A DNA stretch of 64,000 bases from Candidatus Kaiserbacteria bacterium (GCA_016699245.1 CP064968.1:512317-576316), one strand, 5' to 3'; shown: positions 23,390 through 39,232, numbered from the stretch's first letter. Notes: generated by a model from the letters alone, not told the origin. Made by a program: numbers and translations.

Positions 23390-23428
23390 AAATGAGTTAC
23401 ACTATATGCCCCAGAGAAAAATACATAC

Positions 23429-23513: not shown

Positions 23514-23822
23514 CTTGAGCTTCGCGAAAGCGGAGGCGGAGCACATGCTGGGAGCATGTGCGAAGGGATTTGAAGCCATTCAGAGATAATTTTGGAGCCG
23601 CAGGCGAACAAAAATATCCAGAATGGGTACTGAACATGTAATGTTCAAATCCCTCCGCCTCCGCAACGAACGAAGTGAGTGGAGGAGGTGGACAGTCTGG
23701 GAGACTGTCCAAGGATTTGAAGAGGTTGTCGATAGTTTCTGAAAGAAAATATCATACAACCTGAACAGAATCTGTGCCGCGTTCCAGTGAACGAAAAGAT
23801 TCAAATCCTCTCGCCTCCGCAC
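23514..23822 (+). repeat. Two tandem structured units downstream of tRNA-Ser, each re-using the tRNA 3' end and its reverse complement
   Basis: GTTCAAATCCCTCCGCCTCCGC (tRNA T-arm plus acceptor 3' strand) at 23492-23513 is repeated at 23643-23664 and, degenerate, at 23798-23820. Each is followed by its complement (gcggaggcggag / ggaggaggtgg), a GGGA-tetraloop hairpin (cacatgct-ggga-gcatgtg; ggacagtct-ggga-gactgtcc), and the T-loop complement (gggatttgaag). Confidence 0.5.
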
Positions 23823-23827
23823 ACAGC

Positions 23828-25273
23828 CTACTCGTCTACGGTGGGTATTTCTTCAAGTCCTGTATCTTCGATAATTTCCTCGGGGACTTCAGGTACAATC
23901 TGGGCAATCGGATCTTCAACATCCTCTGCAACTTCTTCTTCTAATGGCACCTCTTGAACTACTTCATCGGTAGTCACAGGAGGTATGGGCAACATCATGA
24001 GCGGTTCCACGGAGGGCAGCGCTCGAGGCAACGCTATAGGAGTAGGTGCGGTAAAGGTGAGCGATATCTTTTCACTATCATCATACCCCACACCAGTTGG
24101 ACCGGTGGCGTCCCACGCGGTGTATTCAATATCAATCACACATACCTCCCCCTCCCCAAAAGGACCGTAATTGACAGGTAGTGAAAGCGACAGGGTCCAC
24201 GGTTCATCAAATACGACATCTGAGGCACTGAGATTGACGAGTGACCCTTGATACATAAGCGGTGCACCAGCATCAACGAGTATCGACTGACAAAATAACG
24301 TATTATCACCTACAACATTCGTGTGCACACGGTACTTGATATCAGTACTTCCCTCCGCGGGTGTGACCACCGCGATAAGCGCGCCGTCTGCATCGTCAAG
24401 CTCACTTCCAATAAAGCTATATGCAGTGTCATTAACCGACAGTGTGAAATCAAGCGCTTGTGCCTGAAGTGTATTCTGCACAGAAGATTCTGAGTCGCCA
24501 AAATATGAAACCGTTGAACCTACAAACCCGAGACCGACAATACAAACGCTCGCAACCACAGAAAACGCCCCAATCGCAACGTCACCAAAAGACACAGAAT
24601 GACGCTTGGTATTTCGCACAACACTCATGGGGAGATGTCTTGCCTTGGTAACTGGCTGATACGACACTATTGGTCTTCCAATTTCTATCATACGTACTCT
24701 TTGTCGTGTGTCTGGCGGTAAATCCACACGCACGTCATGCACAACGACGCTTCCCGTATCATCTCCTTTGTCTTTTTTATTTTTTCGTATTTCTCGCCAA
24801 ATTTTCTCAATTTCACCAAAAATAATCATGAGTGCAGGTAGCACAATCAAGAAACCAAAGCCCATCGGTTGCCGTGCGAAGTCAAGAATGAATCCCACAT
24901 AGGGAACTGCAACAACCACCTCTCCCAGTATGGCGCTTAAAGGAATTTGTTCTGTATCCGCCTCTTCATTAGCATCGCCTTTGGTTGTAAACCAGGTTGT
25001 CCCATTACGTTCTTCACTACTCACAATTCTGTGTGTTGTTGGAATTTCTGCTGATGGACTTTTAAAGGTAATAACATCGTTAGTTTCATACTTTCCCGTT
25101 GGACCTATAACAACGACTGAGCCCGTAAGGATTGCAGGTTCCATTGACCCTGACTCAACAATCTTGATTTCAATTTTGGTATCGAGTGGTGAAAGTGGCG
25201 CCAAAAAGAGTCCCGCAACACCAATGAGCAGTACCGTGAAGAAACTATAGAAAATGGTGATGAAAATTTTCAT
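23828..25273 (-). CDS. sipW: SipW-type signal peptidase I (S26B) fused in one ORF to a TasA/camelysin-like domain that carries its own SipW-cognate signal
   Basis: N-terminal ~200 aa: TM, catalytic ESGSMEP, TTKGDANEEAD, second TM, as in SipW. From the internal Met at 24626-24628: n-region MSVVRNTKRHS, an h-region, then STVSYFGDSESSVQNTLQAQALDFTLS, which matches the SipW-cognate signal motif (GTxAxFSDxExSxxNxFxAGxLDL). Acidic C-terminal tail. Confidence 0.65.
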   Translation of the reverse strand: MKIFITIFYSFFTVLLIGVAGLFLAPLSPLDTKIEIKIVESGSMEPAILTGSVVVIGPTGKYETNDVITFKSPSAEIPTTHRIVSSEERNGTTWFTTKGDANEEADTEQIPLSAILGEVVVAVPYVGFILDFARQPMGFGFLIVLPALMIIFGEIEKIWREIRKNKKDKGDDTGSVVVHDVRVDLPPDTRQRVRMIEIGRPIVSYQPVTKARHLPMSVVRNTKRHSVSFGDVAIGAFSVVASVCIVGLGFVGSTVSYFGDSESSVQNTLQAQALDFTLSVNDTAYSFIGSELDDADGALIAVVTPAEGSTDIKYRVHTNVVGDNTLFCQSILVDAGAPLMYQGSLVNLSASDVVFDEPWTLSLSLPVNYGPFGEGEVCVIDIEYTAWDATGPTGVGYDDSEKISLTFTAPTPIALPRALPSVEPLMMLPIPPVTTDEVVQEVPLEEEVAEDVEDPIAQIVPEVPEEIIEDTGLEEIPTVDE

Positions 25274-25274
25274 A

Positions 25275-26501
25275 TTATCGTCGCGAAGGTCGGATCACAG
25301 GTGATGAGACGCCACTTGTTACGGGACTTACCACACTCGGTGTTTGTAGTACCGTAGGTTGCACTCCGGGTGTCGGACTTGCGGGTGTTTTGGTTTTCTT
25401 TGCGGGACGGTACTGGTTATCCACCTGGCAATAGAGGGTGCCGTCGTCGATATTCTTATTATCAATGACGATAGTTGTAGAGAACGTACTTCCCTTCTTG
25501 CATTCTCCATACCATCCTGGTCGCCAGTCACCCGCCACAAAGCCCACAGGCCCAACCTCAGTTATTGAATATGTCCCCAGAGGCAACTGTATTGTCCCAT
25601 TTGCTGAATCTACCGTGTAGGGAGTGAGTGTCACTGTTTGATTGATGCCTGCACCAACAACTTGGAATGTGAACTGCTGTGGCAAATACCCTTCTGGTAC
25701 GGGGCCACTGAATTTCTTTTCGAGGTTAAGCGTTACCGTAGGACCCACAGGTGGTGGAGGGACTGAACCATCGCATTGGTACTTTGGATAATCATCCGCA
25801 GTCACGCTACGAAGCGCAAGATCAACGGAAAAAGAATCCGTTTGTGCCCAATTGCCGAGGGCAGAGCCATCACACGTGACCTCGGCGGTTGCGGTATTAA
25901 CCGTTTGGTCACCCGCACACCACTCAATAGCAACATACTTGGTCACGTTCGCAGGAAAATAATTACCCGTAGTCGCGTCAGCGAGAATATATTTCTTGAG
26001 CACAGCAAAACCTGATTGCTCTGTAGTGGTGCCAAAGAGTGTCTTCTCCCCCACTTCATACGTATTATCACCATCGTCAAACCAACCGAAAAACTCTATT
26101 CCTTTCGAGAGTTCCCCTCCGAGTACGCCATCCACATCGAGGAGTGACTCTGGTTCATTATTTCCATTATCGTGGTCAACCAAGTTCGTAAAATCCATAC
26201 AGCCCCATGCATTTTTATCGACATGAAAACTGATGGTATTGATACCGCTATCCCCTGGCTTTATATCAGTGAAGTTAAAGAATTTATCAACACTGGGTAC
26301 GAGATTTTTTAATGCCCAGGTTTGTGATGGTTGCACGACACCATTATAGATTGCATAACTGTCTATCTTTAAATTGAGACCACCCGTAGCAAAGGTTGTA
26401 CCAATAAATCCCTTACTAAACATCATCACAAAAGCAAGGAATACCACTACCCCCACAATGAGGGCAATGCGTATTCCTGTTTTTGTATATGTGCGATTCA
26501 T
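25275..26501 (-). CDS. TasA/camelysin-like (SipW-cognate signal) secreted protein, paralog 1
   Basis: N-terminal TM then FSKGFIGTTFATGGLNLKIDS (variant SipW-cognate motif). Shares KFFNFTDIKPGDSGINTISFHVD and WCAGDQT...TCDGSALGN blocks with the other paralogs. Divergent Pro-rich C-terminus. Confidence 0.6.
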   Translation of the reverse strand: MNRTYTKTGIRIALIVGVVVFLAFVMMFSKGFIGTTFATGGLNLKIDSYAIYNGVVQPSQTWALKNLVPSVDKFFNFTDIKPGDSGINTISFHVDKNAWGCMDFTNLVDHDNGNNEPESLLDVDGVLGGELSKGIEFFGWFDDGDNTYEVGEKTLFGTTTEQSGFAVLKKYILADATTGNYFPANVTKYVAIEWCAGDQTVNTATAEVTCDGSALGNWAQTDSFSVDLALRSVTADDYPKYQCDGSVPPPPVGPTVTLNLEKKFSGPVPEGYLPQQFTFQVVGAGINQTVTLTPYTVDSANGTIQLPLGTYSITEVGPVGFVAGDWRPGWYGECKKGSTFSTTIVIDNKNIDDGTLYCQVDNQYRPAKKTKTPASPTPGVQPTVLQTPSVVSPVTSGVSSPVIRPSRR

Positions 26502-26602
26502 TTTTTTAGGTACTTATCGCTTCTTCTTTGGGCTATGGTGCTATGGGTTGCGTTCTATGGTTGAGTACTGAGGATGCGTCGAGGCATACGTATTCACCAA
26601 TA

Positions 26603-28017
26603 TTACTGACAGATAGGGCTGTAGAGTTTGATGTCGTCTATGAAACTGCCTTGTGAATTTGCGGTGCCAAGGTCGGTGAACTGAAGTCGAGTCACATTCG
26701 AAGTTGCAACAACATTCACCGTGATAACCTGCCATTCGATACCATCATTATTGTCTGCTACATTGCCGGTGTCGTGCACGACTGCTCCTCCCCACTTCAC
26801 CTCAACACGGTTTTCTGCCGATCCTGTGTTCGGACGCGCTGCAAAGGCAAACTTGATGCGGTACGGCCTTCCTATGACCGTTGGAATGTCTTGGTACATC
26901 GTGATGGATGCTGGCTCACCGGTACCACTGTCGCTTGGTCCTCCCCAGTCGCTGTCGAGCTCAGAATACTGGTCACCTTCATACGCACTGCCGAGTACGT
27001 TTTCATGTAACTCAAGTTTTGCAAGTGCGGGACGATTCTGGTTTCCAAATGTCGGGAGAACATCTCCACGCCATTCGATAGTCCAGCCATCGACAGGAGT
27101 CTGAAACACGTCCCATTTCTTTCCATTCGTCACCTCAGGAACTTCGAAACTGTAGTTCTCAAGAATATTTTCTGGTTGCTCTACAATGGTGCAGTTTTTG
27201 GTACACTCAAAGTTTGCATTATGCCTTGCCTGCACTGCTTCAAATACAATGTCGGCAGTGAGTGAGTCGGTCTGACTTTCATTACCGAGGGCAGTACCAT
27301 CGCAAGTATATCCACCGTCTTCGGGCTCGCCGATTGCCGATGTTCCACCGTTATTGTCTGCGGGAGAACTGTAATTACCTGTGGTAGTGGCGCAGGCACA
27401 ATCGTTCCAAAGCACCATGCTTTACCGATGTGTTTTGTTGTATTACCCGGAATAGGTCCTGCCTGATTTGTCCAGATGTTTTTCACGCTGTCGGCAAAGG
27501 TGAGTGCGTATGAATTGCCAACACCAAGTTGGCCAAAGTTGCCCGTATTGATAACGCTCTCACCCACCTCAAGCACGTTATCGCCATCATCAGCCCACCA
27601 GATGAAGTTGACGAGGCCGGCAAGTTCACCTTCGGTTGCACCAGTCGTTAGGTCGACGAGTGCCTCTGGCTCTGTCTGAGCATTCTCATTGTTTGAGGTG
27701 AGTGTGACATTCGCGCAGAGATATGCGTCATTCGTATCAACGTGAAGTGAGATAGTATCCTCTCCGTAGTCATCAGGCTTGAGGTCAAAAAAATTGAAAA
27801 ACTTCTCAATGGTGAGGTTGGTTGCATCCCATGAGGTAGTGCTTGTCGCAACGCCGTTGTAGTAACTTTCGTTGTCTACTTTGAGATCAATTGCCCCTGC
27901 GGTAAACACGTTTGCTACTGAGGTTTCGGTATCACTAAAGAACGCACTCGTTGCTCCGAACACCAGTCCGCCCGTTACCACCCCTATGAGTGCAAGACTG
28001 AGAATAATACGCTGCAT
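26603..28017 (-). pseudogene. TasA/camelysin-like paralog 2, disrupted by a frameshift near 27400-27420
   Basis: ORF 27181-28017 has the canonical N-terminus (GGLVFGATSAFFSDTETSVANVFTAGAIDLKVD...KFFNFFDLKPDD...KHIGKAWC) then runs into out-of-frame sequence. ORF 26603-27418 continues the family-conserved part (TCDGTALGNESQTDSLTADIVFEAVQARHNANFECT) in another frame. Confidence 0.55.
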
Positions 28018-28045
28018 AGTTTGATATATAAATAATTTATTAAAA

Positions 28046-28100
28046 TATGCTGGTTCCCGTCAGCCCGCTAAATCCCAGCCAAGCTGAGATTTAGTACGGC
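28046..28100. promoter_or_regulatory. Conserved structured intergenic motif between TasA-like paralogs (copy 1)
   Basis: tcagcccgctaaatcccagccaagctgagatttagtacggctag. It is ~90% identical to 29403-29450 and contains nested inverted repeats (cagc-cgaa-gctg; gctaaa/tttag). It lies ~60 nt upstream of the next paralog's start codon and downstream of the previous stop. Confidence 0.4.
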
Positions 28101-28109
28101 TAGTGAGGA

Positions 28110-29357
28110 CTAGTTTGGATTAGATACAACCAAGTTTGTAATAACGCACGTTGGATTAACACCTGATACAACATTCATGTTTGCAGTACCTATGTCATCA
28201 ATCTCTGCACAGCTACCACTGAACGACGCATTGTATTGAATTCCAACAGGATCATTTGAGTACACTTCAGAGACGACGTATGCTCCTGGAGTCAGGTTAG
28301 GAAATGCTACCTGATCAACCAAGATATGATCCCCGCCCGGACCAACCAAATGAAGTACGAAGTCGTTAACATCTACTCCTACAACTGAAGCCTGTGTAAA
28401 TTGAACAACTTTATCAAGAGTTACTGTTCCTGTCTCAACAACTACACGTGGTGTACATGTGAAGTTTGGATTGTTTCGAGCCTGTTCTACACGGAACGCA
28501 ATACTTGCTTCCATAGAGTCGGTCTGCACAATATTGCCCAAATTTGAACCATCGCAGGTAATTGTATTTCCCACGATAGCCTGTGTTCCTGCGCACCATG
28601 CTAGACCAATGTAGTTGGTCTGATTTGGTGCCATTGGTGTACTGTTGTTGAGTCCTGGCATAGCAAGCGGATAACTCTTTCCTCCAAGCACATCACTCGC
28701 TGGACCTGAGTCGTTTGAGAACAGAAGTGGCTCAGCTATTTCTCCTTGCCAAATATTATCTCCTTCACCAGCATCATCATTCAGTTCATTTTCATCTGAG
28801 TTCTGCCATCCAAGGGTAGCGCCCTGATCTAACCAAGCTGCGAACTTAATATTCTGCGCGAGTTCACCATCAAACATATCTGCATCTGGCTCACTTGCTT
28901 GAGTATCTAATTCAAGAACTTCTGCATCTTCTGGCTCATTCACTGTCATGTCATCATTCTTGGTGATATTTACATCAACACAAGCCCAAGCGGGGTTTGA
29001 ATCAATGTGAAGTGAAATAGTGTTTTCACCTTCATCACCAGGTTTTACATCTCGGAAATTAAAGAAAGTCTGTGCACCTAAGTCAGTTGCTTCCCAGGTA
29101 CCCGTACAAGGGAGACCAACTGGATACTCTGTACCACCCTGCCAAGTGTAATCAGTTAAATCGTTAGTAGTTAGAAGGTTTAACTGGCAAATACTACCAT
29201 TATAATGTGCTTCACTATCTACCGTTAGGTCAATTGCTCCGGCAGTAAAGACATTTCCTGTTGAGGTTTCTGTGTCAGAGAAGAATGCTCCTGTTCCTCC
29301 GACGATGAGGGCGCCCGCAAACACGAGCATCCCAACACTTGTAATAATTTTTTTCAT
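28110..29357 (-). CDS. TasA/camelysin-like (SipW-cognate signal) secreted protein, paralog 3
   Basis: MKKIITSVGMLVFAGALIVGGTGAFFSDTETSTGNVFTAGAIDLTVDSE. Conserved FFNFRDVKPGDEGENTISLHID, GLAWCAG...TCDGSNLGNIVQTDS and FRVEQARNNPNFTC blocks. Variable C-terminal beta domain. Confidence 0.7.
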   Translation of the reverse strand: MKKIITSVGMLVFAGALIVGGTGAFFSDTETSTGNVFTAGAIDLTVDSEAHYNGSICQLNLLTTNDLTDYTWQGGTEYPVGLPCTGTWEATDLGAQTFFNFRDVKPGDEGENTISLHIDSNPAWACVDVNITKNDDMTVNEPEDAEVLELDTQASEPDADMFDGELAQNIKFAAWLDQGATLGWQNSDENELNDDAGEGDNIWQGEIAEPLLFSNDSGPASDVLGGKSYPLAMPGLNNSTPMAPNQTNYIGLAWCAGTQAIVGNTITCDGSNLGNIVQTDSMEASIAFRVEQARNNPNFTCTPRVVVETGTVTLDKVVQFTQASVVGVDVNDFVLHLVGPGGDHILVDQVAFPNLTPGAYVVSEVYSNDPVGIQYNASFSGSCAEIDDIGTANMNVVSGVNPTCVITNLVVSNPN

Positions 29358-29402
29358 ACAATTATTAATTTATTTGTAATTAATACTTTTAATTTCCTGG
29401 TT

Positions 29403-29450
29403 CTTACCAGCCCGCTAAACCCCAGCCGAAGCTGAGATTTAGAACGGCTA
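29403..29450. promoter_or_regulatory. Conserved structured intergenic motif between TasA-like paralogs (copy 2)
   Basis: ccagcccgctaaaccccagccgaagctgagatttagaacggctag, near-identical to 28046-28100. Confidence 0.4.
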
Positions 29451-29457
29451 GAAATGA

Positions 29458-30963
29458 CTAGATAGCAGGCGCACCTAGGTATAGACGAGCATTATCGAAT
29501 GGCAAATCTGTAAACGGATTGTTTATAAACCATCCATATCGATTACCTCCAACTTCTGCTGGGATAGTGTCAGATGGATCACTTCGAGTCCATGAACCAA
29601 CCACTACGCCAAGACTATTGAGTACTTTCATATCTACAACCAGTACACCAGCTACGTCATGGAAGTAAGCTTGAAGTGTGTACCAACCGGTGGTGTTGAT
29701 AGCCACAGTTCCAACTCCATGTGGGTCACCAGGTGCGTTATTACTTGCATTTGCTGCCCATACACCTACTGCATTAGTACCAAGATGGAAAATAAAGTCA
29801 CGTTGATGATTTCCATCTGATCCATTACTTGCAGATGAGAAATCGAAACGCTTATCTATACCATCAGCATCTGCCATATCAAGATAGACATCTACTTCAG
29901 TTGTATAGCCACCAGCTGGAAATACTGATGAATATCCTCCCCATCGAGTAAAGATATCTCCATTAGCAAGACCATGTTTATTTCCATCAGAAGATGTAAC
30001 ACCACCTGTACCTGAATTTACGATACTGAATGTACCATCATTACTAAACCAGTACGGGTCACCTTGCTGTTCAAAACTTTCTGAAAAGACCAAATCTAAT
30101 GCTGGAGGAATATCTCCGCACGTAAAGTTAGGATTATTTCGTGCTTGTTCAACGCGGAACGCAATATTTGCAACCATAGAGTCAGTTTGCGCAATGTTGC
30201 CCATCGCACCACCGTTACAAGCAATTGTTCCGGCAACTGGCGTGGTGAGATCACCAGCACACCAAGCAAGCCCGACATAACTAGTACTTCCACCTACCAG
30301 TGCTCCGAGAATCGGAGAAGCAATTGTGTAGCTCTCACCATCGAGCACATCGCTCGCTGGACCACTACCATTTGAGAACAATGGTTGCTCATTTGCTTGC
30401 CAGATGTTATCTCCTTCACCTGGATCAGTACCTTGGAATCCTGGTGTTGCTCCGTAGTCTGCCCAAGCAAAAAATTCGATATTTTGAGCGAGCTCTCCAT
30501 CAAAGAGACTGCCGGTATTAACCGCGTCCCCTGCACCAAGTTCTGGTTCTACTGTACTCACATCATCATTAGCAACAAGTGACACATCGACACAAGCATA
30601 CGCATCATTGTTGTCTACATGAAGAGAGATAGTATTTTCTCCTTCGTCGCCTGGCTTGATGTCGGTAAAGTTAAAGAAAGTTTGCGCTCCCAAATTGGCT
30701 GGAAGCCAAGTTCCGGTACATGGTGAATTAAGGACTGGGTACTGTGGATTATCTTCAGTCTCTCCATCATCTAGCACCCATACTCCGTTTGTACAAACAG
30801 CATTGTTGTAGTGTTGTTCACTATCAACCTTTAAATCGATTGCTCCAGCGGTAAACAAGTTACCTGTTGAGGTTTCTGTATCACTAAAGAATGCGCCTGT
30901 GCCGCCAGCGACAAGTGCGCCGACGAAGACAATCATTCCCAAACTCATAATAATTTTTTTCAT
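29458..30963 (-). CDS. TasA/camelysin-like (SipW-cognate signal) secreted protein, paralog 4, with a long divergent C-terminal domain
   Basis: Likely start MKKIIMSLGMIVFVGALVAGGTGAFFSDTETSTGNLFTAGAIDLKVDSE at 30963. Conserved FFNFTDIKPGDEGENTISLHVD, GLAWCAG...ACNGGAMGNIAQTDS and FRVEQARNNPNFTC, then ~230 aa of unique C-terminus. Confidence 0.7.
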   Translation of the reverse strand: MKKIIMSLGMIVFVGALVAGGTGAFFSDTETSTGNLFTAGAIDLKVDSEQHYNNAVCTNGVWVLDDGETEDNPQYPVLNSPCTGTWLPANLGAQTFFNFTDIKPGDEGENTISLHVDNNDAYACVDVSLVANDDVSTVEPELGAGDAVNTGSLFDGELAQNIEFFAWADYGATPGFQGTDPGEGDNIWQANEQPLFSNGSGPASDVLDGESYTIASPILGALVGGSTSYVGLAWCAGDLTTPVAGTIACNGGAMGNIAQTDSMVANIAFRVEQARNNPNFTCGDIPPALDLVFSESFEQQGDPYWFSNDGTFSIVNSGTGGVTSSDGNKHGLANGDIFTRWGGYSSVFPAGGYTTEVDVYLDMADADGIDKRFDFSSASNGSDGNHQRDFIFHLGTNAVGVWAANASNNAPGDPHGVGTVAINTTGWYTLQAYFHDVAGVLVVDMKVLNSLGVVVGSWTRSDPSDTIPAEVGGNRYGWFINNPFTDLPFDNARLYLGAPAI

Positions 30964-31320
30964 GTGTATATAAATGCTATGTATAATGAATACCAATAAA
31001 CACGTTGGGGCTTCCTAAGCGCGTTCCCTACCACACGAGTATTCCCATAAAACGTCTGATAATAATATCGTATGCTGTCAAATCGAGGTATTTGAGGAAA
31101 AAAAGAAAAAATAGTACTCATTTTTGAGCAAATATGTGCATAAGTCGTAACAGCTTTGTTGAAGATACTGATTATTGTAAAATTTTGTATAGTTGATAAC
31201 GTGTGCTTAACGTGTGCTTAACAGATGTATATTCTGTTCATAGTGCTGTAGACAACACTTTTTGTAGGTAATAGAACACACAAAAAAAGAAGTTCAATAC
31301 GTGCGTATGACACTTCTTAA

Positions 31321-31959
31321 TTATTGCTTGAGTGAGGCGTATACAACGAGGTTGTGACTGTACTTCTCTTCTCCTTTGTCGTATGTTCCGGTACAGGTGA
31401 CCAAGCGAAGTGTTGGTGTGTCTGTACTGCCATAGACTAGTTCTGTGGGGAAATCATCCTGACTGTATCGTGCGAGAGAATCGACGGTAAATACAGCAAC
31501 ACTTCCGTCTTCACGTGTAATTTCTATCTCATCACCTGCTTCCAATTTTCTGAGTGGCCAAAATACTGCAGGTCCTTTGTATGAGTCCACGTGCCCCAGC
31601 ACCACTGCTGCCCCTACTTCACCCGGGGTCGGGCCGTTTTTGTACCACCCCACCTGTGTGTACGAATCGGGTACTTCAATAGTCTTATCTTCCTTCAGTC
31701 CAAGGGGCTTTTCAAATGTGGCCTCTACTTCAATTTTTGGAATAGAAATACGTGTCGGAGCCGAGCGAGAAAATGCGACTGATGTTGTTGCACTCGGTAC
31801 TTCAGACGTTGGTGCTTGTTGTGGCGACTCTTTCAAAAGAAAAAGAATTCCAAGACTACTCAGTGCTCCCACCACCATCCCCGCAACAGCAAACGCCACT
31901 ACCTTTTGGTACTGGCGGTTTGCTATACATGCACGTATGTTTTTGAATACATTAGCCAT
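31321..31959 (-). CDS. Sortase-family transpeptidase (membrane-anchored)
   Basis: N-terminal TM. Sortase His region AVVLGHVDS, conserved TLxTC catalytic motif PTLRLVTCTG, and a beta-barrel-like length of 212 aa. Overlaps by 8 nt with the upstream substrate gene. Confidence 0.6.
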   Translation of the reverse strand: MANVFKNIRACIANRQYQKVVAFAVAGMVVGALSSLGILFLLKESPQQAPTSEVPSATTSVAFSRSAPTRISIPKIEVEATFEKPLGLKEDKTIEVPDSYTQVGWYKNGPTPGEVGAAVVLGHVDSYKGPAVFWPLRKLEAGDEIEITREDGSVAVFTVDSLARYSQDDFPTELVYGSTDTPTLRLVTCTGTYDKGEEKYSHNLVVYASLKQ

Positions 31960-33232
31960 TCTTCACTTTTCGAACTGATGTTGAAAGAGGAAGGATTGCC
32001 GTGAGTATTGGGAATTGTACTGCGTGAGGAGCGGTTCCTCCAGCACCCGTGTTTGGTGCTCCAATAGGCATTATGCTCGTTGATTCACCGAGTACTTCAC
32101 CCTCTGGTTCATCATCATTATTATTGGAAGAGTGTCGTCTACTTCCGCGGCGAGGACCTGAACCATCGCTTCCACTACTTGAACTATCATCTTCTTGTAC
32201 ATTACCAAAGTTGTATGGACCGTATGTTGTGGGAAGTACCGATGCGTACGCTGTAGGAACCACAAAGTCCATTAGTTTTGCAAAGAAATGAGTCTCTTCA
32301 CTAAACGTAACCTCTCCAAGCACTTCTACCACATGCCCATTGACATTAGGAAATGTTTTACTCCATCCCTCTTCTATGATTTCGTTGATTGTCCATGTTC
32401 CCGCAGGCACATAAAAGTAATAGTATCCAGATGCATCAGTCGTTGTTGAATACGTTACACCACCGTTCGTTATTTGTACTGTCCATCCATCAAGATCGCT
32501 CTCATCATCCACTGGGTTTGGCTGTTCTACATCCCATGCATCATTTTCGTTTTCATCGTGCCATACGTATCCGAATACGAGCCATTTTGGAACGGTATTC
32601 TCTCCTCCACCATCGAGTGTGTTGGTAATCACACAGGTCACGGTCTCGTTTGCCTGAAGTGAAATTGCGGTGATAGGGCTTCCATCACTACACACCGCGC
32701 TTGTCTGTGTCCAGTTTGTCTCGAGTGTTTCAACAACATTGTATACGCCAACGGCCAATCCTGATTGAGTATGTTGTCCACCATCACTAAGTGTAAAATT
32801 CACTTCGCTCCAACTTGGATTAAAGGTGAAGACCGTCTGATTACCATCGGGAAGTGTTTGTTTTTCAATAATAATTGTTCCTTTTTCTCCTCCTCCAGTA
32901 TCACCGTTTAACGTGTTTGTAACGACACAGGTCACTGTTTCTCCCGATTGAAGTGCAATAGCGTTTATAGGGCTTCCGTCACTACATACCGCACTTGTCT
33001 GCGTCCATCCCGTTATCGGAGACTCCACAACACTATACGTTCCTGTCGCAAGCTTTGAAGAAGTGCTCTGTCCACCATCACTGAGTGTAAAATCCACGTC
33101 GCTCCAACTTGGATTAAAGGTGAAGAGAGTCTGATTACCATCTGGGATAGTCTGTTTTTGTATGATGATAGTCCCTTTGTCTGGGTCACCATTTCCGCCT
33201 CCGTTATATGTATTGGTAATGACACACGTCAC
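31952..33232 (-). CDS. Sortase-substrate surface protein, C-terminal part: three tandem Ig-like repeats and a cell-wall sorting signal. Probably one gene with 33262-34026, split by a frameshift
   Basis: Three ~95-aa tandem repeats (TCVITNT...GTIIIEKQTIPDGNQT.FTFNPSWS.V.FTLSDGGQ...GWTQTSAVCSDGSPI). C-terminus is PIGAPNTGAGG, then a hydrophobic stretch (AVQFPILTAILPLSTSV), then a basic tail RKVKNG: sorting-signal architecture. The repeat reading frame continues upstream of the annotated Met (AQLATTDHGWTQTSAVCTDGSP). Confidence 0.6.
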   Translation of the reverse strand: MTCVITNTYNGGGNGDPDKGTIIIQKQTIPDGNQTLFTFNPSWSDVDFTLSDGGQSTSSKLATGTYSVVESPITGWTQTSAVCSDGSPINAIALQSGETVTCVVTNTLNGDTGGGEKGTIIIEKQTLPDGNQTVFTFNPSWSEVNFTLSDGGQHTQSGLAVGVYNVVETLETNWTQTSAVCSDGSPITAISLQANETVTCVITNTLDGGGENTVPKWLVFGYVWHDENENDAWDVEQPNPVDDESDLDGWTVQITNGGVTYSTTTDASGYYYFYVPAGTWTINEIIEEGWSKTFPNVNGHVVEVLGEVTFSEETHFFAKLMDFVVPTAYASVLPTTYGPYNFGNVQEDDSSSSGSDGSGPRRGSRRHSSNNNDDEPEGEVLGESTSIMPIGAPNTGAGGTAPHAVQFPILTAILPLSTSVRKVKNG

Positions 33233-33261
33233 TGTTTCGTTTGCCTGAAGTGAAATAGCGT

Positions 33262-34026
33262 TTATAGGACTTCCATCAGTACAGACCGCGCTTGTCTGTG
33301 TCCACCCATGATCCGTGGTGGCAAGTTGTGCTTTTGTTCGCCATCACCACATAAGTCAACTACATCCCAGCTTGGATTAAACGTAAAATCAGTCTGATTA
33401 CCATCAGGAATAGTCTGCTTTTCTATGATGATAGTTCCTCTGTCAGGATCACCATTTTCATACTCGCAAGACCCATCATTCTCTTCAGCTGCGGGGTCGT
33501 AGTTTGTAGCTTCCGAGTCAGTACAGCCGAGTATTGGAGCAGGTTCCCCTGGCCACTGATTGTCAGCTTTGCAGGCATTACCGACGTCATCTGCGAGTGG
33601 ATAGTCGACACTGGTTTCAACCACAGTAATCTCTATCGGCCGTACAGGTCCATTCCCATCATTGGCTGTCTCGCAGCCAGGACCAGACCACTGAAGTGTC
33701 CAATCCGCGGGTACAAATCCCGCAGGACCAACTTCTGAAACGGTGTGGGTCCCCGCAGTAAGATAGACCACTTTTTCAGCAGTATCAGGAGTTAACGCAT
33801 CTAATGTAACGATACCGTAACCACTGACATTGAATTTAAATTCGTCGGCTGTATATGGATCAGGGGTGTAGTTATCACTGATGCTTTTCGTAAGCTTAAA
33901 TGGATATGTTGCTACTGTAGCCTCTGCTGTCGTAGGTTGTACAAGTTGAAACGCGACGAACACGGTAAGGAGCAGTGTTGCGAAGAGCGCAACACGCGCA
34001 AACTTAAGATTGATACGAGTAATCAT
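33262..34026 (-). CDS. Sortase-substrate surface protein, N-terminal part (signal peptide plus first repeat), frameshifted relative to 31952-33232
   Basis: Signal peptide (FARVALFATLLLTVFVAFQLVQPTTAEA). Ends with GTIIIEKQTIPDGNQTDFTFNPSW, i.e. runs into the same repeat unit before losing frame around 33300-33340 (near gatggcgaacaaaag). Confidence 0.55.
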   Translation of the reverse strand: MITRINLKFARVALFATLLLTVFVAFQLVQPTTAEATVATYPFKLTKSISDNYTPDPYTADEFKFNVSGYGIVTLDALTPDTAEKVVYLTAGTHTVSEVGPAGFVPADWTLQWSGPGCETANDGNGPVRPIEITVVETSVDYPLADDVGNACKADNQWPGEPAPILGCTDSEATNYDPAAEENDGSCEYENGDPDRGTIIIEKQTIPDGNQTDFTFNPSWDVVDLCGDGEQKHNLPPRIMGGHRQARSVLMEVL

Positions 34027-34154: not shown

Positions 34155-37100
34155 TTATCTGAAGAAACCAAAAACGTTCTTCACAAATCCGGCAACACCC
34201 CCCTGTTTTTGCTCTGCTGGCGCTTGTGCGGTTGGTTTCGGTTCAGGTGTTGGAGCAGGTGCTGGAGTCGGTGCTGGTGCTGGTGGTACGTACTTTGGCT
34301 TTGGCGCCACAGGAGCCGGTACCGGAGCGGTTATAGAAGCACCCGCAACGGCTGGGTTTGCGTTCGTTGGGAAAGCGAGTGTCAACTTCAAGATGGTAGA
34401 TGGCACCGTGAATGTGTACTCTCGACTCGTGGTAACAAACGTATCACTTTGTGCGTGGATGCGGTACGCATACGTACGACCCGGTTGAAGATTCGTTATA
34501 ATCATCACATGTTTTGGTCTCACGGTAGGGAACTTGAAACTTGCGTACGGATAGCCCATGTTGAGTGCACTTTGGTTATAGGGTGAGACTGCTTGTGCGA
34601 CACCATAGAATACCTGGCTTAATGAAGGCTTTGACGTCTCCCATGTCGCAAGTGCTGAGACGGTTCCATTTGCTCCGGGGAAGTATGCAAGAACGGAAAC
34701 GTTGCCGACTGCAAGATCAAGTCCTTTTACCTGTATGGTGTACACGGCATCTTTAATTTTCAGTGGAGCTTTCTTCGCCTCCTTCATGCCGTCCTTAAGG
34801 TATGCTTTTATACTTGCGGTATTGGTATACATGCCACTTGGCGTGTTTTCATTGTACTCAGTGGTATACGTGAGTTTAATCACTTCACCAGGGAGTATGG
34901 TATCAAGCACCCACGACTGCTCAGCCACAATTGACCCAATCGGATTTGTGAGCACATCAAATACCTCAACGTCATACGCATTGCCTCCCGTATTGGTAAC
35001 CGTAATCTTGTAGTCAACACTTTCTCCTGCGTTTACAACATCCCCTTCATCAACGTTGACAGCATCTTTCTTAATAACGAGATGCGGTGCCTTACTTGGA
35101 TCAATTGCTTTTACTTCTGCACGCTCAACTTTTGTTTTCTTTGGACCTCCGCTTTTACCACCGCTCGGTGAAGTTTGTGAAGGTGTTTGTGTAGTACTAG
35201 TATCAGTATTCCCTTCCTCACCACCTCCCACGGGGTCAGTGGTGCCCGTACCATCGTCGGTCGTTGTTCCGGTACCATTACCCGTCGTTGTGCCTGTACC
35301 ATTCCCGGTAGTTGTTCCGGTACCAGTGCCACTACCTGTCGTTGTACTTGTTGTCGAACCCGTTCCTCCTCCGCCTGAACCAGCCGGTTGTGGTTTAAAC
35401 GCGTCTTTACTCAGCATGAGCGAGTTGTCAGCGATGTTTTCATCACCTTTATCACTCGAGACAGCGGCATACGCAGTAACGGTAGTAGTGCCAAAAGGAA
35501 TATCTGAGTTTACGATTGCGGTGAGGACACCTTGCTTACTCTGGCCCGGCTCTATACTACCCAAAGACTTGCTCTGTGTAGTTCCATTTGAGGTTGTACG
35601 CGCCGACTCGAGTACTTGATCAATCACCACGTTGGTTGCAGTCGTGTTGCTATGGTTTGTCACCGTGTATGTATAGGTAAGTGTGTCACCAATACCAAGC
35701 GATGCGTCTGAAGCGGAGACAGTACCGGTAAGCGCGATGTCAGTGGCTGCAAAAGAAACATTTCCTTCAAAATCTCCAAGAATGTTGATGACCGCAAACG
35801 TCCAGTTCGTACCGATGATGTTGGTGTTTGCAATGTTCATCACGTTTGCACTTGCAAAAGCGTTTCCGGTGTTGATGCTTCCAATCAATGCATCAATGTC
35901 GTTCTCCCCCGTGATGGCATTGATAGAAAGATTGTTTTCAAGCGCAACACGGTTGTTGTTATCAAAATTTGCGGTATATGCATCGAGGTCTTTCGTACTG
36001 AGAAATTCGGATGGAGTAATCTCAGCATCTGCATTGTATATAACAATTCCTTGCGGTGTCCATTCCCACAGGAGACCCTCAGGGAGACCAACGACATCTC
36101 CACTCCACACACCATGCACACGGATAAGCATGTACATTGAATCACCACCGTAGGTGTTTTCATTAATCTTATTGAGCACGTTCGATTCAGACTCTGCCCT
36201 TCCCGTGGTGATATTTGATGCAAAAGATGTTGTTGACTCATTCAGTCCCGTTTCAGCATAAGCATCGATATTATTATCCACCACGGCATCATTCAGGTTG
36301 TTCACACGCACATTGAAGTCTTCATATTTCCCCTGTCGGCTTTCTTCAGAAACAGCTATGCCGTTTGCGCGTCCAAAAAATGCGTCAAAAAGTTCTCCTG
36401 TGGGGAGCACGAGGTCACCCTCGAGGTCGCCAATAGCGTTATAGGTAAAAAGTCTATAGTTGGAGTCAATGATGTTGCTGTTAACGACGTTGATGACGTT
36501 TGCTGCCGCGTAGGCGTCACCCGTGGTAATCTCTGCGCTTGAAATTCCCACTGCTTCATTGTAACCAGTCACTGCTTCCACAACGGCGTTGTTGGTGATG
36601 GTTGCATTATTCATCTGCGATACGTTGTACACAACATCTTCAGCAATACATGAAAGCAATGAACAGGTGTTTGAAAGTGCCTCTTCCTGTGCTGGATCGG
36701 GGAAAAATGAACTCGTGAGGTCGAGTGATTGACCTTCATCGAGGATTTTGTTCGCGAGATAAATAAAGCCATTCGAGTTGATGACGTTGGTATTGACCAC
36801 GTTTGCGATATTAAACGCTGCAATCGAATCTCCCGTGTTCACTTCCGCAGTACTTCGTCCTCGAGCATAGTTGTCACCAGAGGTGGAGCGAGTTAAACCA
36901 TCGTTCGTTATAATTGCGTCATTGGTGCCTGTGGCAACAAAGGTATAGATATCAAAATCATTTGGAACAGGACCGATGAGTTCACTGCGAATATCGTTTG
37001 AGTTTGCGTCAGTGGAAAGCTCTCCCTGTGCAGTCGCGATTCCCGTCTCAATAAGCGCAAAAGTCTCTCTTTGTGTTATATCACCCGTAGTTTCTTCTTC

Positions 37101-37535
37101 TTGAGGAACACCAACATCCCCAAGTAGTCCGTCGGAAATAATGTCAACAGGCGTTATTTCATCATCGGGCGTTGCCCCTGCGGTCGCATCAGCTCCGTCT
37201 TGACCTTGCGGTGTCGTTTCAGGGGTTTCTTCTGATGGTGATTCTACTGCAACTGGTGATGCTTCAGATGATGGGGTGTTTTCTGTAATCACCGGGTCAG
37301 GAATTATTTCTGGAGGTGTCGTTTCGGTATCAGGTACTCCTCCTGCTGTGCCGTCATTCCCTTCTTGTCCATCTACACCTTGGGATGGAATCTCTATAGT
37401 AGTGGGTTCTACAGGTGGTAGCGTGTCCTCAGCAAAAACAGCGAGCGGAATGAGCGACGAGAGTATTGAGACGATAATTATCGTCGCCAAAAAGCGATTT
37501 AATTTCTCCGCTACTTTAAAATAGTATGCTGACAT
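34155..37535 (-). CDS. Giant (1126 aa) cell-surface protein with beta-helix-like N-x-N repeats, DUF11-like domains, a Gly/Thr low-complexity linker and a Pro-rich C-terminus
   Basis: N-terminal signal anchor. ~5 repeats of the type N.A.I.N...TG.N.A......TG.A.AANV.NVVN.N.I.SN. Two DUF11-like segments (TYTYTVTNHSNTTATNVVIDQVL; DYKITVTNTGGNAYDVEVFDVL). TGSGTGTGTTTGNGTG linker. PAPAPTPAPAPTPEPKP tail. Confidence 0.55.
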   Translation of the reverse strand: MSAYYFKVAEKLNRFLATIIIVSILSSLIPLAVFAEDTLPPVEPTTIEIPSQGVDGQEGNDGTAGGVPDTETTPPEIIPDPVITENTPSSEASPVAVESPSEETPETTPQGQDGADATAGATPDDEITPVDIISDGLLGDVGVPQEEETTGDITQRETFALIETGIATAQGELSTDANSNDIRSELIGPVPNDFDIYTFVATGTNDAIITNDGLTRSTSGDNYARGRSTAEVNTGDSIAAFNIANVVNTNVINSNGFIYLANKILDEGQSLDLTSSFFPDPAQEEALSNTCSLLSCIAEDVVYNVSQMNNATITNNAVVEAVTGYNEAVGISSAEITTGDAYAAANVINVVNSNIIDSNYRLFTYNAIGDLEGDLVLPTGELFDAFFGRANGIAVSEESRQGKYEDFNVRVNNLNDAVVDNNIDAYAETGLNESTTSFASNITTGRAESESNVLNKINENTYGGDSMYMLIRVHGVWSGDVVGLPEGLLWEWTPQGIVIYNADAEITPSEFLSTKDLDAYTANFDNNNRVALENNLSINAITGENDIDALIGSINTGNAFASANVMNIANTNIIGTNWTFAVINILGDFEGNVSFAATDIALTGTVSASDASLGIGDTLTYTYTVTNHSNTTATNVVIDQVLESARTTSNGTTQSKSLGSIEPGQSKQGVLTAIVNSDIPFGTTTVTAYAAVSSDKGDENIADNSLMLSKDAFKPQPAGSGGGGTGSTTSTTTGSGTGTGTTTGNGTGTTTGNGTGTTTDDGTGTTDPVGGGEEGNTDTSTTQTPSQTSPSGGKSGGPKKTKVERAEVKAIDPSKAPHLVIKKDAVNVDEGDVVNAGESVDYKITVTNTGGNAYDVEVFDVLTNPIGSIVAEQSWVLDTILPGEVIKLTYTTEYNENTPSGMYTNTASIKAYLKDGMKEAKKAPLKIKDAVYTIQVKGLDLAVGNVSVLAYFPGANGTVSALATWETSKPSLSQVFYGVAQAVSPYNQSALNMGYPYASFKFPTVRPKHVMIITNLQPGRTYAYRIHAQSDTFVTTSREYTFTVPSTILKLTLAFPTNANPAVAGASITAPVPAPVAPKPKYVPPAPAPTPAPAPTPEPKPTAQAPAEQKQGGVAGFVKNVFGFFR

Positions 37536-38037
37536 AGGTAATTAACATTAACTGCAATGAAAAAAGTGCCTCCGAAAACTTCGAAAATACACTTTGAGAT
37601 GCATCTTCACTCGTCGTATTTTGGAAGTTTTCAAGAACCAAAGTTTCGGTAGTCGTGGTTGTGTGTGTTGCAAAAACAAAAGACGAGTCAGCGGGTGAAG
37701 ATTGAGTTTTTTGAATATCTAAAACTGGTACTTCATCCACAGTAGATTCGATGATACTTGAAGCATGGTTTATATTGTTTTTGGTAACAATACTGCCTGA
37801 TGTTCCTGGTGCACCATCTGTCCCAGGTTTTCCATCTTCACCATCTTGGCCACTTTGGCCATCTTCACCATCTTGACCCCTTTGGTGTATCCCGCCAGTG
37901 TTCTCACTTGTATACACGACGTTTGTAATGAGGTGTGCATCATCTGCACATACACGTTCTGTCGCAACTGTACTAAAAACAGCCACAATTGCAAGCACGA
38001 CAAATATTTGTTTGTAATTTCTCACTGATTGCATCAT
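37516..38037 (-). CDS. Small secreted collagen-like (G-x-x) repeat protein
   Basis: Signal peptide (IFVVLAIVAVFSTVATERVCA). Motif DDAHLITNVVYTSENTGGIHQRG is followed by the G-x-x tract GQDGEDGQSGQDGEDGKPGTDGAPGTSG. The N-terminal motif is shared with the neighbouring genes. Confidence 0.5.
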   Translation of the reverse strand: MMQSVRNYKQIFVVLAIVAVFSTVATERVCADDAHLITNVVYTSENTGGIHQRGQDGEDGQSGQDGEDGKPGTDGAPGTSGSIVTKNNINHASSIIESTVDEVPVLDIQKTQSSPADSSFVFATHTTTTTETLVLENFQNTTSEDASQSVFSKFSEALFSLQLMLITYVSILF

Positions 38038-38119
38038 CCCTCTATAAAGTCAGAATACATTTCCGACTTTACGAGAGGGCCCCTTTGTGAAAAGGGGTTC
38101 TCCTCTCAGTCAGTCACAA

Positions 38120-39232
38120 TTATTGACGAACAACTCGAGTAGTGTTTCGGTTTACAATGTTTGTAACCGTACTCCATGAGTCAGCCTTTCCAGTGCGAAC
38201 AGCTCCGCCGTTACCTCCAGCGTCGCCATTACCACCTGAGCCTCCTACACCAGTGTTTCCACCAGCTGCTCCAGCTCCACTAGTACCGCCGTTACCAGCA
38301 GCTCCGGTGTTTCCACCGTTGCCACCTGTTCCGCCGTTACCAGCAAGTTGTGTTCCATCAACTTCATGTGGTGCTTGTGAGGTAGCGTCTCCGCCATTGC
38401 CTCCTTCTGCACCATCACCAGCTGAACCTGAAGTTCCGCCCTGTGAGTTATTTTGACTTGATCCACCGTCTCCAGCGCCACATTCGCAGTCGTTACTGCC
38501 GCCGTTTCCGCCGTCATTACCGTTGCCTCCTTCTCCGCCTTCTGAATCATTGTTACCTGAATCAGAAGTTGCTACGCCCATATTGAGAAGAGCAACTTGG
38601 TTGAGGTCAGTTACGATTGCTGCAGTTTCATCAAGATCAGATTCGCTTCCATCGCGGATTACTTCTGTATCGCTGTTGTTTACATCGTTAGCGATGTCTG
38701 AAGTTGAGATAGCGTCACCCGATGTGATGTCGCCACCGTTTCCTCCAACTGCTCCATCACCACCGTGTCCACCAGCTCCTGTTGAGCCACCTGCTCCACC
38801 GTTTCCAGAGTTACCTCCGTTTCCAGCAGCTCCTGAAGTGCCTCCAGTTCCGCCATTTCCACCCTGTCCGCCCATTTGAAGAGCGTCAACACCGTCAACG
38901 TCTCCGTTCGCATCTCCTCCGTTACCTGCGTTTCCAGCATCTCCAGCTGATCCAGTGTTTCCACCGTCTCCGTTGTTTATGCTTGATCCGCCAGTTCCCG
39001 CATTGTCGCCTCCGTTACCACCTTCTCCACCACGTCCACCTCGAGCTCCTCGTGAAGAGTTTCCTCCGGTGTTTGATGAAGCGATTGAAACGTTAGCGAT
39101 CATTGCTGAATTAGCATTTGTTACCATAACAAGATCGTTTTCGTACGCTTGTGCTGGCGCAATAGCCACAAGTCCAAGAGCGAGTGCTGCAAGAGAGATT
39201 GCTGCTGTTGATTTATACATTACTGATGTCAT
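38120..39232 (-). CDS. Secreted glycine-rich (GGNGG-repeat) protein
   Basis: Signal peptide (AAISLAALALGLVAIAPAQA-YE). NDLVMVTNANSAMIANVSIASSNTGGNSSRG motif then ~300 aa of GGNGG/GTGG repeats with interspersed acidic segments. Opposite-strand ORFs here are repeat artefacts. Confidence 0.5.
   Translation of the reverse strand: MTSVMYKSTAAISLAALALGLVAIAPAQAYENDLVMVTNANSAMIANVSIASSNTGGNSSRGARGGRGGEGGNGGDNAGTGGSSINNGDGGNTGSAGDAGNAGNGGDANGDVDGVDALQMGGQGGNGGTGGTSGAAGNGGNSGNGGAGGSTGAGGHGGDGAVGGNGGDITSGDAISTSDIANDVNNSDTEVIRDGSESDLDETAAIVTDLNQVALLNMGVATSDSGNNDSEGGEGGNGNDGGNGGSNDCECGAGDGGSSQNNSQGGTSGSAGDGAEGGNGGDATSQAPHEVDGTQLAGNGGTGGNGGNTGAAGNGGTSGAGAAGGNTGVGGSGGNGDAGGNGGAVRTGKADSWSTVTNIVNRNTTRVVRQ

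Follow-up and report, generated by a model that had tools for sequence, protein, structure and literature searches.

A class F sortase gene and its probable dedicated, frame-broken substrate gene in Candidatus Kaiserbacteria

The sortase gene and its overlapping partner

The DNA analysed here is a 64-kb stretch of a Candidatus Kaiserbacteria genome (the window), and its subject is a locus on the minus strand, at 31321-34026, where a sortase gene follows, and slightly overlaps, the gene of a repetitive surface protein with a putative C-terminal sorting signal. The two very probably represent a dedicated class F sortase-substrate gene pair, in which the frame of the substrate gene has been broken by one missing base. 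As annotated, the locus carries a class F sortase gene (31321-31959, minus strand; 212 amino acids (aa), QQR64444.1 at NCBI) and, upstream of it, two open reading frames (ORFs), each labelled 'hypothetical protein': ORF2 (31952-33232, minus strand; 426 aa, QQR64445.1, IPH92_02640), which begins with GTG, and ORF1 (33262-34026, minus strand; 254 aa, QQR64446.1, IPH92_02645). The sortase product is 100% identical to QQR64444.1 ('class F sortase', Candidatus Kaiserbacteria bacterium), and the host of all three accessions is a single 1,054,716-bp Candidatus Kaiserbacteria record. Since the three products are identical to entries from this taxon, the organism is a bacterium of the Candidate Phyla Radiation (CPR, or Patescibacteria).

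The product of 31321-31959 is a class F sortase. It scored 189.7 bits against the NCBIfam model NF033748 (class_F_sortase), above the curated cutoff of 166 bits, the runner-up being class E at 28.1 bits, and aligned to Pfam PF04203 (Sortase) over profile positions 1-124 of 125 (E=2.6e-24). An earlier reading of the window, made from the sequence alone (the sequence-only reading), had proposed a sortase here; the profile and class assignment bear this out, as do a His123 and Cys189 found in 151 of 151 family representatives (see later). The AlphaFold2 (AF2) model, for which 25 homologues were supplied, has a mean predicted local distance difference test score (pLDDT) of 76 and consists of an N-terminal helix (residues 2-42) followed by a beta-barrel. 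Its strand 116-123 ends at His123, strand 182-189 ends at Cys189 and the last strand, 203-210, starts at Asn203, while no lid segment was predicted with any confidence. Residues ~20-42 (31834-31902, minus strand) form a predicted membrane anchor on the basis of Kyte-Doolittle hydrophobicity and the AF2 helix, the best 19-residue window (2.28) starting at residue 24. Foldseek comparison of the model with the PDB gave 106 matches at E<=0.001; the top 50 listed were all sortases and included no class F structure, with classes A, C, D and E matched at E values of ~1e-8 to 1e-7. Relative to L001, the locus with the closest relative of the sortase (88% identical), dN/dS (the ratio of nonsynonymous to synonymous substitution rates) was 0.17, indicating purifying selection.

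The substrate and sortase genes overlap by 8 nucleotides (nt) at 31952-31959 on the minus strand (AATGGCTAA context), with the substrate stop codon at 31952-31954 and the sortase ATG at 31957-31959, exactly as had been read from the sequence. An identical 8-nt overlap was present in seven related loci (L002, L006, L014, L015, L021, L031 and L062), where the substrates end in NG before the stop, and the arrangement fits translational coupling. A promoter and terminator scan returned nothing beyond shuffled expectation.

ORF1 and ORF2 are halves of one gene, since the orthologues found beside related sortases are intact single genes (P0122, 538 aa; P0125, 520 aa; P0130, 552 aa; P0136, 620 aa), three of which (P0122, P0125 and P0130) carry the ORF1 N-terminal domain, the repeat, the SdrD-like domain and the signal in one frame. 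The split of the substrate by a frameshift, suspected in the sequence-only reading, is borne out by this comparison and by the restoration of the frame with a single added A (see later). ORF1 contributes the signal peptide (33919-34026, minus strand), the N-terminal immunoglobulin (Ig)-like domain, a Cys linker and the start of repeat 1. The signal peptide, also anticipated, starts MITRINLKFARVALFATLLLTVFVAFQLVQPTTAEA and reaches 2.68 in its best 15-residue Kyte-Doolittle window. ORF2 holds the C-terminal 62% of the substrate gene; its GTG 'start' falls within a repeat, and it has no signal peptide of its own. The orthologues share a common layout, in which a signal peptide is followed by a domain matching that of ORF1 (YPFKLTKSISDNY...CKADNQWRGE), one or two small Cys modules (GCTDP..NYNP...SC.Y), usually one GTIIIEKQT...FNPSW...WTQTS..C.DGS...TC..TNT repeat, an SdrD_B/SpaA-like domain (YLVFGYVWHDENE...), a Gly/Ser-rich spacer and finally the sorting signal. 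The Cys module, GCTD(P/S)xAxNY(N/D)PxAxxDDxSCxY with its two Cys residues, lies at ORF1 residues ~165-190 (~33457-33534), after the N-terminal domain and ahead of the repeats; the window has a single copy, whereas some orthologues have two (P0122 and P0130 were compared).

The Ig-like repeat is ~96 aa long, and three copies were identified by hmmsearch of the repaired protein (residues 193-276, 281-375 and 380-472; E=1.7e-38, 1.1e-52 and 3.3e-53), one fewer than the four originally counted. Repeat 2 lies at 32909-33187 and repeat 3 at 32615-32893 (both minus strand), while repeat 1, delimited by DNA alignment at 33206-33450 (minus strand), bears the frameshift and is 34 nt short (245 nt, where repeats 2 and 3 have 279 nt each; the alignment gaps measure 3, 7 and 24 nt). 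Its loss amounts to ~11 codons plus one base and includes the G-x-Y-x-x-x-E strand conserved in the other copies, so that repeat 1 is an older, shortened copy with one additional base out of frame. Tandem Repeats Finder reported nothing; the repeats are ~80% identical and separated by linkers. Three positions are conserved in the repeat alignment, namely K12 of the first strand (IIIEKQT), E56 of the G-x-Y-x-V-x-E strand and N92 of the last strand (VITNT), a pattern that we take to be that of isopeptide-forming CnaB domains, and two Cys residues are invariant. To judge from these positions, the repeat may be akin to isopeptide-forming CnaB/SpaA domains. Against Pfam it stayed below the cutoffs, with 22.2 bits for PF19403 SpaA_2 (repeat 2; cutoff 25) and 18.0 bits for SpaA_4 (cutoff 27.3), and a search of PDB sequences with the repeat profile found no relative, the one hit (E=0.64) being a chance match.

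Downstream of the repeats lies a prealbumin-like domain of the SdrD_B/SpaA type (32345-32569, minus strand; ORF2 residues 222-296), which matched PF17802 SpaA over residues 242-285 (25.7 bits, cutoff 23.1) and PF17210 SdrD_B (E=1.9e-4). The repeat profile gave only chance-level echoes on this domain and on the N-terminal one. The two are different, distantly related Ig-like domains, which brings the total to five. Precomputed hits for the substrate orthologues were to PF17802, PF19403, PF24514 and PF17210. A structure predicted for ORF2 from the single sequence was unusable (pLDDT 38).

The sorting signal and the active site in related loci

The substrate gene ends in EVLGESTSIMPIGAPNTGAGG, 21 hydrophobic residues and RKVKNG (in full, EGEVLGESTSIMPIGAPNTGAGG-TAPHAVQFPILTAILPLSTSV-RKVKNG). 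A six-frame pattern match places this sorting signal (EVLGESTSIM-PIGAPNTGAGG, hydrophobic stretch, RKVKNG) at 31955-32098 on the minus strand, with its core at 32036-32068 (PIGAPNTGAGG reading from 32068 to 32036), so the motif, hydrophobic stretch and RKVK tail described in the sequence-only reading are all in place. The motif lies 27 residues ahead of the stop. Three K/R residues occur in the tail, whose best 15-residue Kyte-Doolittle window is 1.47. The window substrate shows the three-part layout of GVDTG-type signals, i.e., a motif, a hydrophobic segment and a basic tail at the protein end. No further ORF with this sorting signal was found in the six frames of the 64-kb window.

Relatives of the sortase were surveyed using one genome per species, which gave 80 loci. 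Among the ~73 with a readable upstream gene, the gene directly upstream of the sortase ends with the same tail in ~66, from CPR classes as well as Actinobacteria (e.g., Acidimicrobiia and Nocardia). The consensus of 66 tails is P-x-G-A-P-x-T-G-x-G-G followed by a hydrophobic stretch and K/R residues. Counting from the Thr as position 0 (n=66), where the anchor pattern fixed Gly at +1 and +3 and left positions -16 to -1 free, Pro occupies -6 in 64, Gly -4 in 62 and Ala -3 in 54; position -2 is Pro in 48 and Ala in 16, position -1 is Asn in 29, position 0 is Thr in 53 and Ala in 12, and +4 is Gly in 60. As neither Pro(-6) nor Gly(-4) was set by the search, their frequencies place the motif far beyond chance. 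The closest relative, L001, has the tail PIGAPNTGGGG...RKVKNG, and with the ~66 loci it confirms that the PNTG-type motif is conserved in homologues. CPR tails have an additional conserved stretch, [EQ]-V-L-G-E-x-x-S-x-x-P, before the motif, whereas the tails of Acidimicrobiia, Nocardia and other Actinobacteria lack the VLGE part but keep [VI]-P-x-G-A-P-x-T-G-x-G-G. Comparative genomics shows that the pairing of sortase and substrate, and the signal itself, are real and widespread.

The Thr of the T-G pair is replaced by Ala in 12 of the 66 cognate signals (e.g., GAPNAGAGG) and by Met in one more; the loci listed with non-Thr signals are L004, L007, L015, L020, L029, L031, L032, L035, L055, L060, L072 and L078. 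Ala at this site in cognate signals implies that the Thr side chain is not essential for recognition in the class F family, and, together with the conserved Pro(-6), Gly(-4), Gly(+3) and Gly(+4), it suggests an extended recognition surface. In two substrates (L063, ending in GAPATGRGGLRMCIE, and L069, ending in SAPATGFGGLQMCLF) the protein stops a few residues past the motif and the hydrophobic tail is missing; truncation or a frameshift of the signal could account for this, or the tail could be of another type that ends in M-C-[IL]-x. At one locus, from Candidatus Doudnabacteria (L061:6349-6975), the gene upstream of the class F sortase is no substrate but a second class F sortase, ending ...RYSHNLVVYASVVN.

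The window tail scored 16.6-16.7 bits (E=0.007) against the NCBIfam model NF058571 (GVDTG_CTERM), below its cutoff of 29, and aligned with only the first 23 of the 44 profile positions. The same model matched 36 of 62 related tails, with a best E value of 1.5e-9, and actinobacterial tails from loci of this kind scored at least 28.8 bits, the example at 28.8 falling just short of the 29-bit cutoff. The LPXTG model TIGR01167 gave no hit on the window tail at a maximum E-value of 10 (HMMER filters drop most matches above ~0.1) and matched two of the 62 related tails at E<=0.1. The motif is of a non-LPXTG kind, as had been proposed, and the signal of the locus is already catalogued, as the NF058571 'GVDTG sorting domain', so that a class F sortase with a GVDTG-type substrate is a known kind of pair; what NF058571 misses is the signal in its CPR form. 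No relevant paper came up in a literature search for GVDTG.

Conservation of the active site was assessed in the query and 150 representatives of 50%-identity clusters (n=151), drawn from 12,237 representatives at E<=1e-3. The catalytic His123 (codon 31591-31593, GHVD motif) and Cys189 (codon 31393-31395, LRLVTC motif) are present in all 151, as are Thr188 and Tyr200 (codon 31360-31362), the latter three residues before Asn203. Arg185, on beta7 and four residues before Cys189 (codon 31405-31407), is found in 146 and is otherwise Gln. Where strand beta8 begins, and where the canonical catalytic Arg would be expected, the sortase has Asn203 (codon 31351-31353; all codons on the minus strand), and Asn is found there in 149 of 151. 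HMMER pairs the SHNLVVYA segment of the sortase with SHRLIVHA of Thermobifida fusca sortase E, placing Asn203 opposite an Arg that comes nine residues after the Cys, presumably the usual spacing of the catalytic Arg in class E sortases. Reviews ascribe a His-Cys-Arg triad to all sortases; here the Arg at the start of beta8 is missing from it, with Asn203 in its place.

Other assignments of the Arg were tried and rejected. HMMER set the Arg of C. perfringens SrtD opposite family position 199, where the alignment terminates; the position is variable (R in 52, S in 37 and H in 24 of 151), and an alignment anchored on beta8 again puts the SrtD Arg opposite Asn203. An hhalign comparison of the family with S. 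aureus SrtA stopped at the Cys and was uninformative on the Arg. The conserved catalytic Cys looked for in the sequence-only reading is there, and the Arg named beside it is not. Because its absence is a conserved family trait beside an invariant His and Cys, in a gene under purifying selection, it does not argue against a sortase. On the alignments and the model, Asn in place of the beta8 Arg appears to be a class-wide trait of class F and no lesion of this gene.

The break in the substrate frame and the genes around it

The frames of ORF1 and ORF2 are both open only between 33343 and 33265, and that of ORF2 runs upstream to 33343, beyond its annotated start. Both earlier statements, that the repeat continues in frame upstream of 31952-33232 and that the frame is lost around 33300-33340, agree with this. 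The frame change is bounded by 33265-33343, and one A added to the A4 run at 33332-33335 (minus strand) restores a continuous 691-aa ORF reading ...GDGEQKAQLATTDHGWTQTS..., in which the junction is spanned by the peptide ...GDGEQKAQLATTDHGW.... Compared with repeats 2 and 3, repeat 1 gave pN/pS values (the ratio of nonsynonymous to synonymous differences per site) of 0.13-0.22 in its flanks to either side of the break, the same range as between repeats 2 and 3, with synonymous divergence near saturation. Downstream of the break dN/dS was 0.22 against L001, and 426 codons run without a stop. Purifying selection on both sides indicates that the frameshift is recent or artefactual, and that the halves were translated in one frame until very recently. 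L001 covers only the last 231 substrate codons, so the junction is not visible there. An exact look-up of the sortase in a contig index showed no independent assembly of the strain on record, a DNA pattern across the A-run had 0 hits in metagenome contigs, a protein-guided scan of metagenome contigs with ORF1 found no relatives, and a protein search with the junction peptide yielded no candidates.

An assembly error and a real recent mutation (or strain heterogeneity) have roughly equal odds of accounting for the break, each falling a little short of even, with programmed slippage a distant third. If it is an assembly or consensus error, the true genome would have a fifth A in the run at 33332-33335, or some equivalent additional base, and the substrate would be an intact, functional protein of 691 aa. 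The restoration of the frame by a single A, the homopolymer at the site, the strong purifying selection on both sides and the lack of downstream stops all favour this, as does a second frameshift 6 kb away (described below), where one base is again missing relative to the intact L001 orthologue. The record is, moreover, a single 1.05-Mb contig with a QQR protein accession, features that we take to be typical of closed metagenome-assembled genomes from long reads, in which deletions are presumably the usual residual error. Against an error, both frameshifts lie in the surface-protein cluster while the checked housekeeping genes are intact, and, by a rough calculation, (15 kb / 55 kb) squared, uniformly distributed errors would cluster so only ~7% of the time. 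Nor is the second site a homopolymer, and an independent assembly of the strain was sought and none found.

The same clustering, two frameshifts in ~7 kb of dispensable surface-protein genes and none in the checked housekeeping genes, is what a genuine, very recent inactivating mutation would produce. The substrate gene would then be a young pseudogene, possibly one allele of the population, and the sortase would be left with no functional partner at the locus. The earlier loss of ~10 codons from repeat 1, including a conserved strand, suggests relaxed constraint on that domain and is consistent with such a mutation, as is the NCBI annotation of two separate ORFs. Yet dN/dS is not raised and no secondary stops have accumulated downstream, so the event would have to be extremely recent, and the sortase remains under purifying selection (dN/dS 0.17) with no other substrate in the window. 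A deliberate bypass of the break is very improbable: -1 ribosomal slippage on CAA-AAG, in which tRNA-Lys would move from AAG to AAA within GAA-CAA-AAG, leads exactly to the restored frame, and surface proteins are common targets of phase variation that could act through the length of the A-run to yield a regulated anchored protein, but four A's are too few for slipped-strand or transcriptional slippage to be efficient, the site differs from the canonical X-XXY-YYZ heptamer, no orthologue has a split gene and the TasA-like frameshift lacks a slippery context. Whatever its origin, the frameshift is of local interest only, as a matter of annotation and assembly: a single gene, broken or mis-assembled, stands in the public record as two 'hypothetical proteins' (QQR64445.1 and QQR64446.1).

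The sortase is followed immediately downstream by a cluster of TasA-like genes (23828-30996, minus strand). SipW-dependent signal peptides (TIGR04088) were detected in three of its proteins, encoded at 29458-30996, 28110-29357 and 26603-28017. The last, a TasA/camelysin-like gene on the minus strand, is split at ~27376-27379, where the window reads CCACAG-GTAATT (one A missing) against CCACAGAGTAATT in the intact 474-aa L001 orthologue; dN/dS for its two halves was 0.10 and 0.07. A fourth, divergent paralogue lies at 25275-26501 (minus strand), and its C-terminal ~140 aa (LEKKFSGPVPEGY...CQVDNQYRP) share homology with the Ig-like domain at the N-terminus of the sortase substrates; in a tblastn search, the L001 orthologue of this paralogue matches the window at 33553-33864 (E=1e-10). 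Through this homology the two surface-protein systems share a domain. The cluster ends with a SipW/archaeal-type signal peptidase I (23828-25273; TIGR02228, 100.5 bits, cutoff 51.85), which has a C-terminal extension of ~300 aa, and the gene order of sortase, TasA-like genes and peptidase is also kept in L001. Upstream of the substrate, at 34155-39232 (minus strand), are three further secreted proteins, none with a sortase signal: an 1126-aa DUF11/DUF7507 repeat protein, a 173-aa protein with a short collagen-like G-x-x segment and a 370-aa protein made up largely of Gly/Asn/Ser/Asp low-complexity sequence.

Each of the housekeeping genes checked in the window (LepA, a class I tRNA synthetase, GroEL, RNase J, TsaD, MurJ) is intact, and its domains are covered in full. 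MurJ, the flippase of peptidoglycan precursors, is at 16600-18321 (Pfam E=9e-59). A class A RNase P RNA (116 bits) was found at 20906-21235 (minus strand), along with genes for tRNA-Phe(GAA), tRNA-Arg(CCT) and tRNA-Ser(GGA) at 8738-8811 (minus strand), 9332-9407 (minus strand) and 23429-23514 (plus strand), respectively. An ORF listed at 23350-23712 overlaps tRNA-Ser on the opposite strand and is probably no gene. The ORFs at 22162-23712 were considered as split genes and rejected; they are separate small genes plus a tRNA, with no frameshifts.

Proposed mechanism and relation to known systems

In this reading a single gene, which spans ~691 codons between 34026 and its end at 31952 (minus strand), encodes the substrate. 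From the N-terminus on, its product consists of a Sec signal peptide, an Ig-like domain, a short Cys linker, three ~96-aa SpaA/CnaB-like repeats in tandem, of which the first is shortened, an SdrD_B/SpaA-like domain, a spacer rich in Gly, Ser and Arg, the VLGE...P-I-G-A-P-N-T-G-A-G-G signal, a hydrophobic segment and a basic tail. If the system works as characterised sortases do, the substrate precursor would be exported by Sec and held in the membrane by the hydrophobic segment and basic tail. The membrane-anchored sortase would then cleave inside A-P-N-T-G, between Thr and Gly, using Cys189 and His123, form a thioacyl intermediate and transfer the protein to an amine, most likely that of a peptidoglycan precursor and less likely a Lys on a second subunit; this analogy is the source of the proposed chemistry, cleavage site and acceptor. 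MurJ, encoded in the same window, would provide the peptidoglycan context for the acceptor. The expected outcome is a wall-linked stalk of five Ig-like domains, and what interrupts it in this genome would be a single base missing in or near the A4 run at 33332-33335, through assembly or consensus error or a very recent inactivating mutation.

Several observations weigh against this reading as it stands. The gene as assembled cannot make an exported, anchored product, since ORF1 has no anchor and ORF2 no signal peptide, and repeat 1 lacks the conserved strand even after the frame is repaired. The signal of the window falls under the NF058571 cutoff (16.6 against 29 bits), the ~18% of related signals with Ala at the presumed scissile Thr weaken the assumption of cleavage between Thr and Gly, and the absence of the canonical catalytic Arg (Asn203) means that catalytic details may differ from those of sortase A.

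Instead of attaching single molecules to peptidoglycan, the sortase might polymerise the substrate into a covalent, pilus-like fibre in the manner of class C. The dedicated one-to-one pairing, the SpaA/CnaB-type domains of the substrate, as found in Gram-positive pilins, and the presence of class C pilus sortases among the top Foldseek hits are all compatible with a fibre. A pilin-motif lysine (WxxxVxVYPK) and an E-box were, however, not identified in an inspection by eye only, the N-terminal YPFK seems by eye to belong to the strand that opens an Ig-like domain, the sortase classes are not told apart by their Foldseek scores and AF2 gave no confident lid segment, all of which makes polymerisation unlikely. 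A link to the 'Pam' pili of CPR bacteria (bioRxiv 10.64898/2026.03.03.709456) was also considered and rejected, as these assemble by donor-strand exchange and sortases are mentioned there as background only. That the enzyme is catalytically dead or repurposed for want of an Arg, the C-terminal motif being handled otherwise, is highly improbable: Asn203 in place of the beta8 Arg would fit, but the substitution is class-wide (149/151) beside an invariant His and Cys and an Arg at Cys-4 (146/151), the family is very large (12,237 cluster representatives), the gene is under purifying selection and it is tightly linked to a motif-bearing gene.

Attachment of a single-molecule stalk to the wall, the preferred reading, can be set against several known systems. 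Class F sortases (NF033748; InterPro IPR042001) are known mainly from Actinobacteria, and the window sortase shares with them a score above the cutoff, a beta-barrel, an N-terminal anchor and the invariant His and Cys; its YxxN-hydrophobic beta8 motif and LRLxTC are the same as in Nocardia, Aldersonia and Acidimicrobiia. It differs from known class F enzymes in its host, a CPR bacterium with a genome of ~1 Mb, and, in contrast to a single housekeeping sortase serving many substrates, it belongs to a dedicated, overlapping gene pair. The tail resembles the GVDTG sorting domain (NF058571) in its three parts and its G-x-x-T-G-x-G-G core, but CPR tails read G-A-P-N-T-G and have the upstream VLGE stretch that is absent from actinobacterial tails. 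With the LPXTG system of sortase A (TIGR01167; Staphylococcus aureus SrtA) the locus has a common logic, namely a signal peptide, a T-G motif, a hydrophobic segment and a basic tail, as well as a Cys/His transpeptidase type of enzyme with the sortase fold, whereas the signal has Ala or Gly for Leu and the additional conserved Pro(-6), Gly(-4), Gly(+3) and Gly(+4), and the beta8 Arg of the sortase is replaced by Asn. Like the stalks of Gram-positive pilins and adhesins (SpaA/CnaB/SdrD_B; PF17802, PF19403, PF24514 and PF17210), the substrate is built of tandem ~95-aa Ig-like domains, but its repeat is below the Pfam cutoffs, has two invariant Cys residues and has no relative among PDB sequences.

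The physiological role, natural substrates and structure of class F sortases have been described as unknown (PMC13251363, 2026; PMC11231552, 2024), and a quadruple class F sortase deletion in Actinoplanes gave no phenotype (PMC13251363, PMC11231552, PMC8225981). According to PMC13251363 and PMC8225981, the enzyme of Cutibacterium (Propionibacterium) acnes is the only biochemically characterised member; it is reported to use LPXTG (PMC8225981), a sequence that differs from the P-x-G-A-P-N-T-G-A-G-G signal of the window partner. The locus alone matters little, both of its parts being already covered by NCBI models; the points worth specialist follow-up are the clear substrate pairing and the replacement of Arg by Asn. 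The tight one-to-one pairing across CPR and Actinobacteria names a class F substrate and a recognition sequence to test, and a class-wide Asn in place of a catalytic Arg held to be 'universal' poses a concrete question of structure. Sortases are known to be common in CPR bacteria, more than half of which encode one (PMC6744442). As attachment to other cells is the way of life of these organisms, Ig-repeat stalks anchored in the wall are candidates for structures of host contact. Tentatively, and with the balance tilting against the proposal as a whole, class F sortases may use an active site that departs from the His-Cys-Arg triad and recognise the extended, glycine-rich P-x-G-A-P-x-(T/A)-G-x-G-G (preceded by VLGE in CPR), each serving one translationally coupled Ig-repeat protein. 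If true, the CPR/actinobacterial pair would supply a natural substrate and a testable hypothesis of specificity and active site for all class F sortases.

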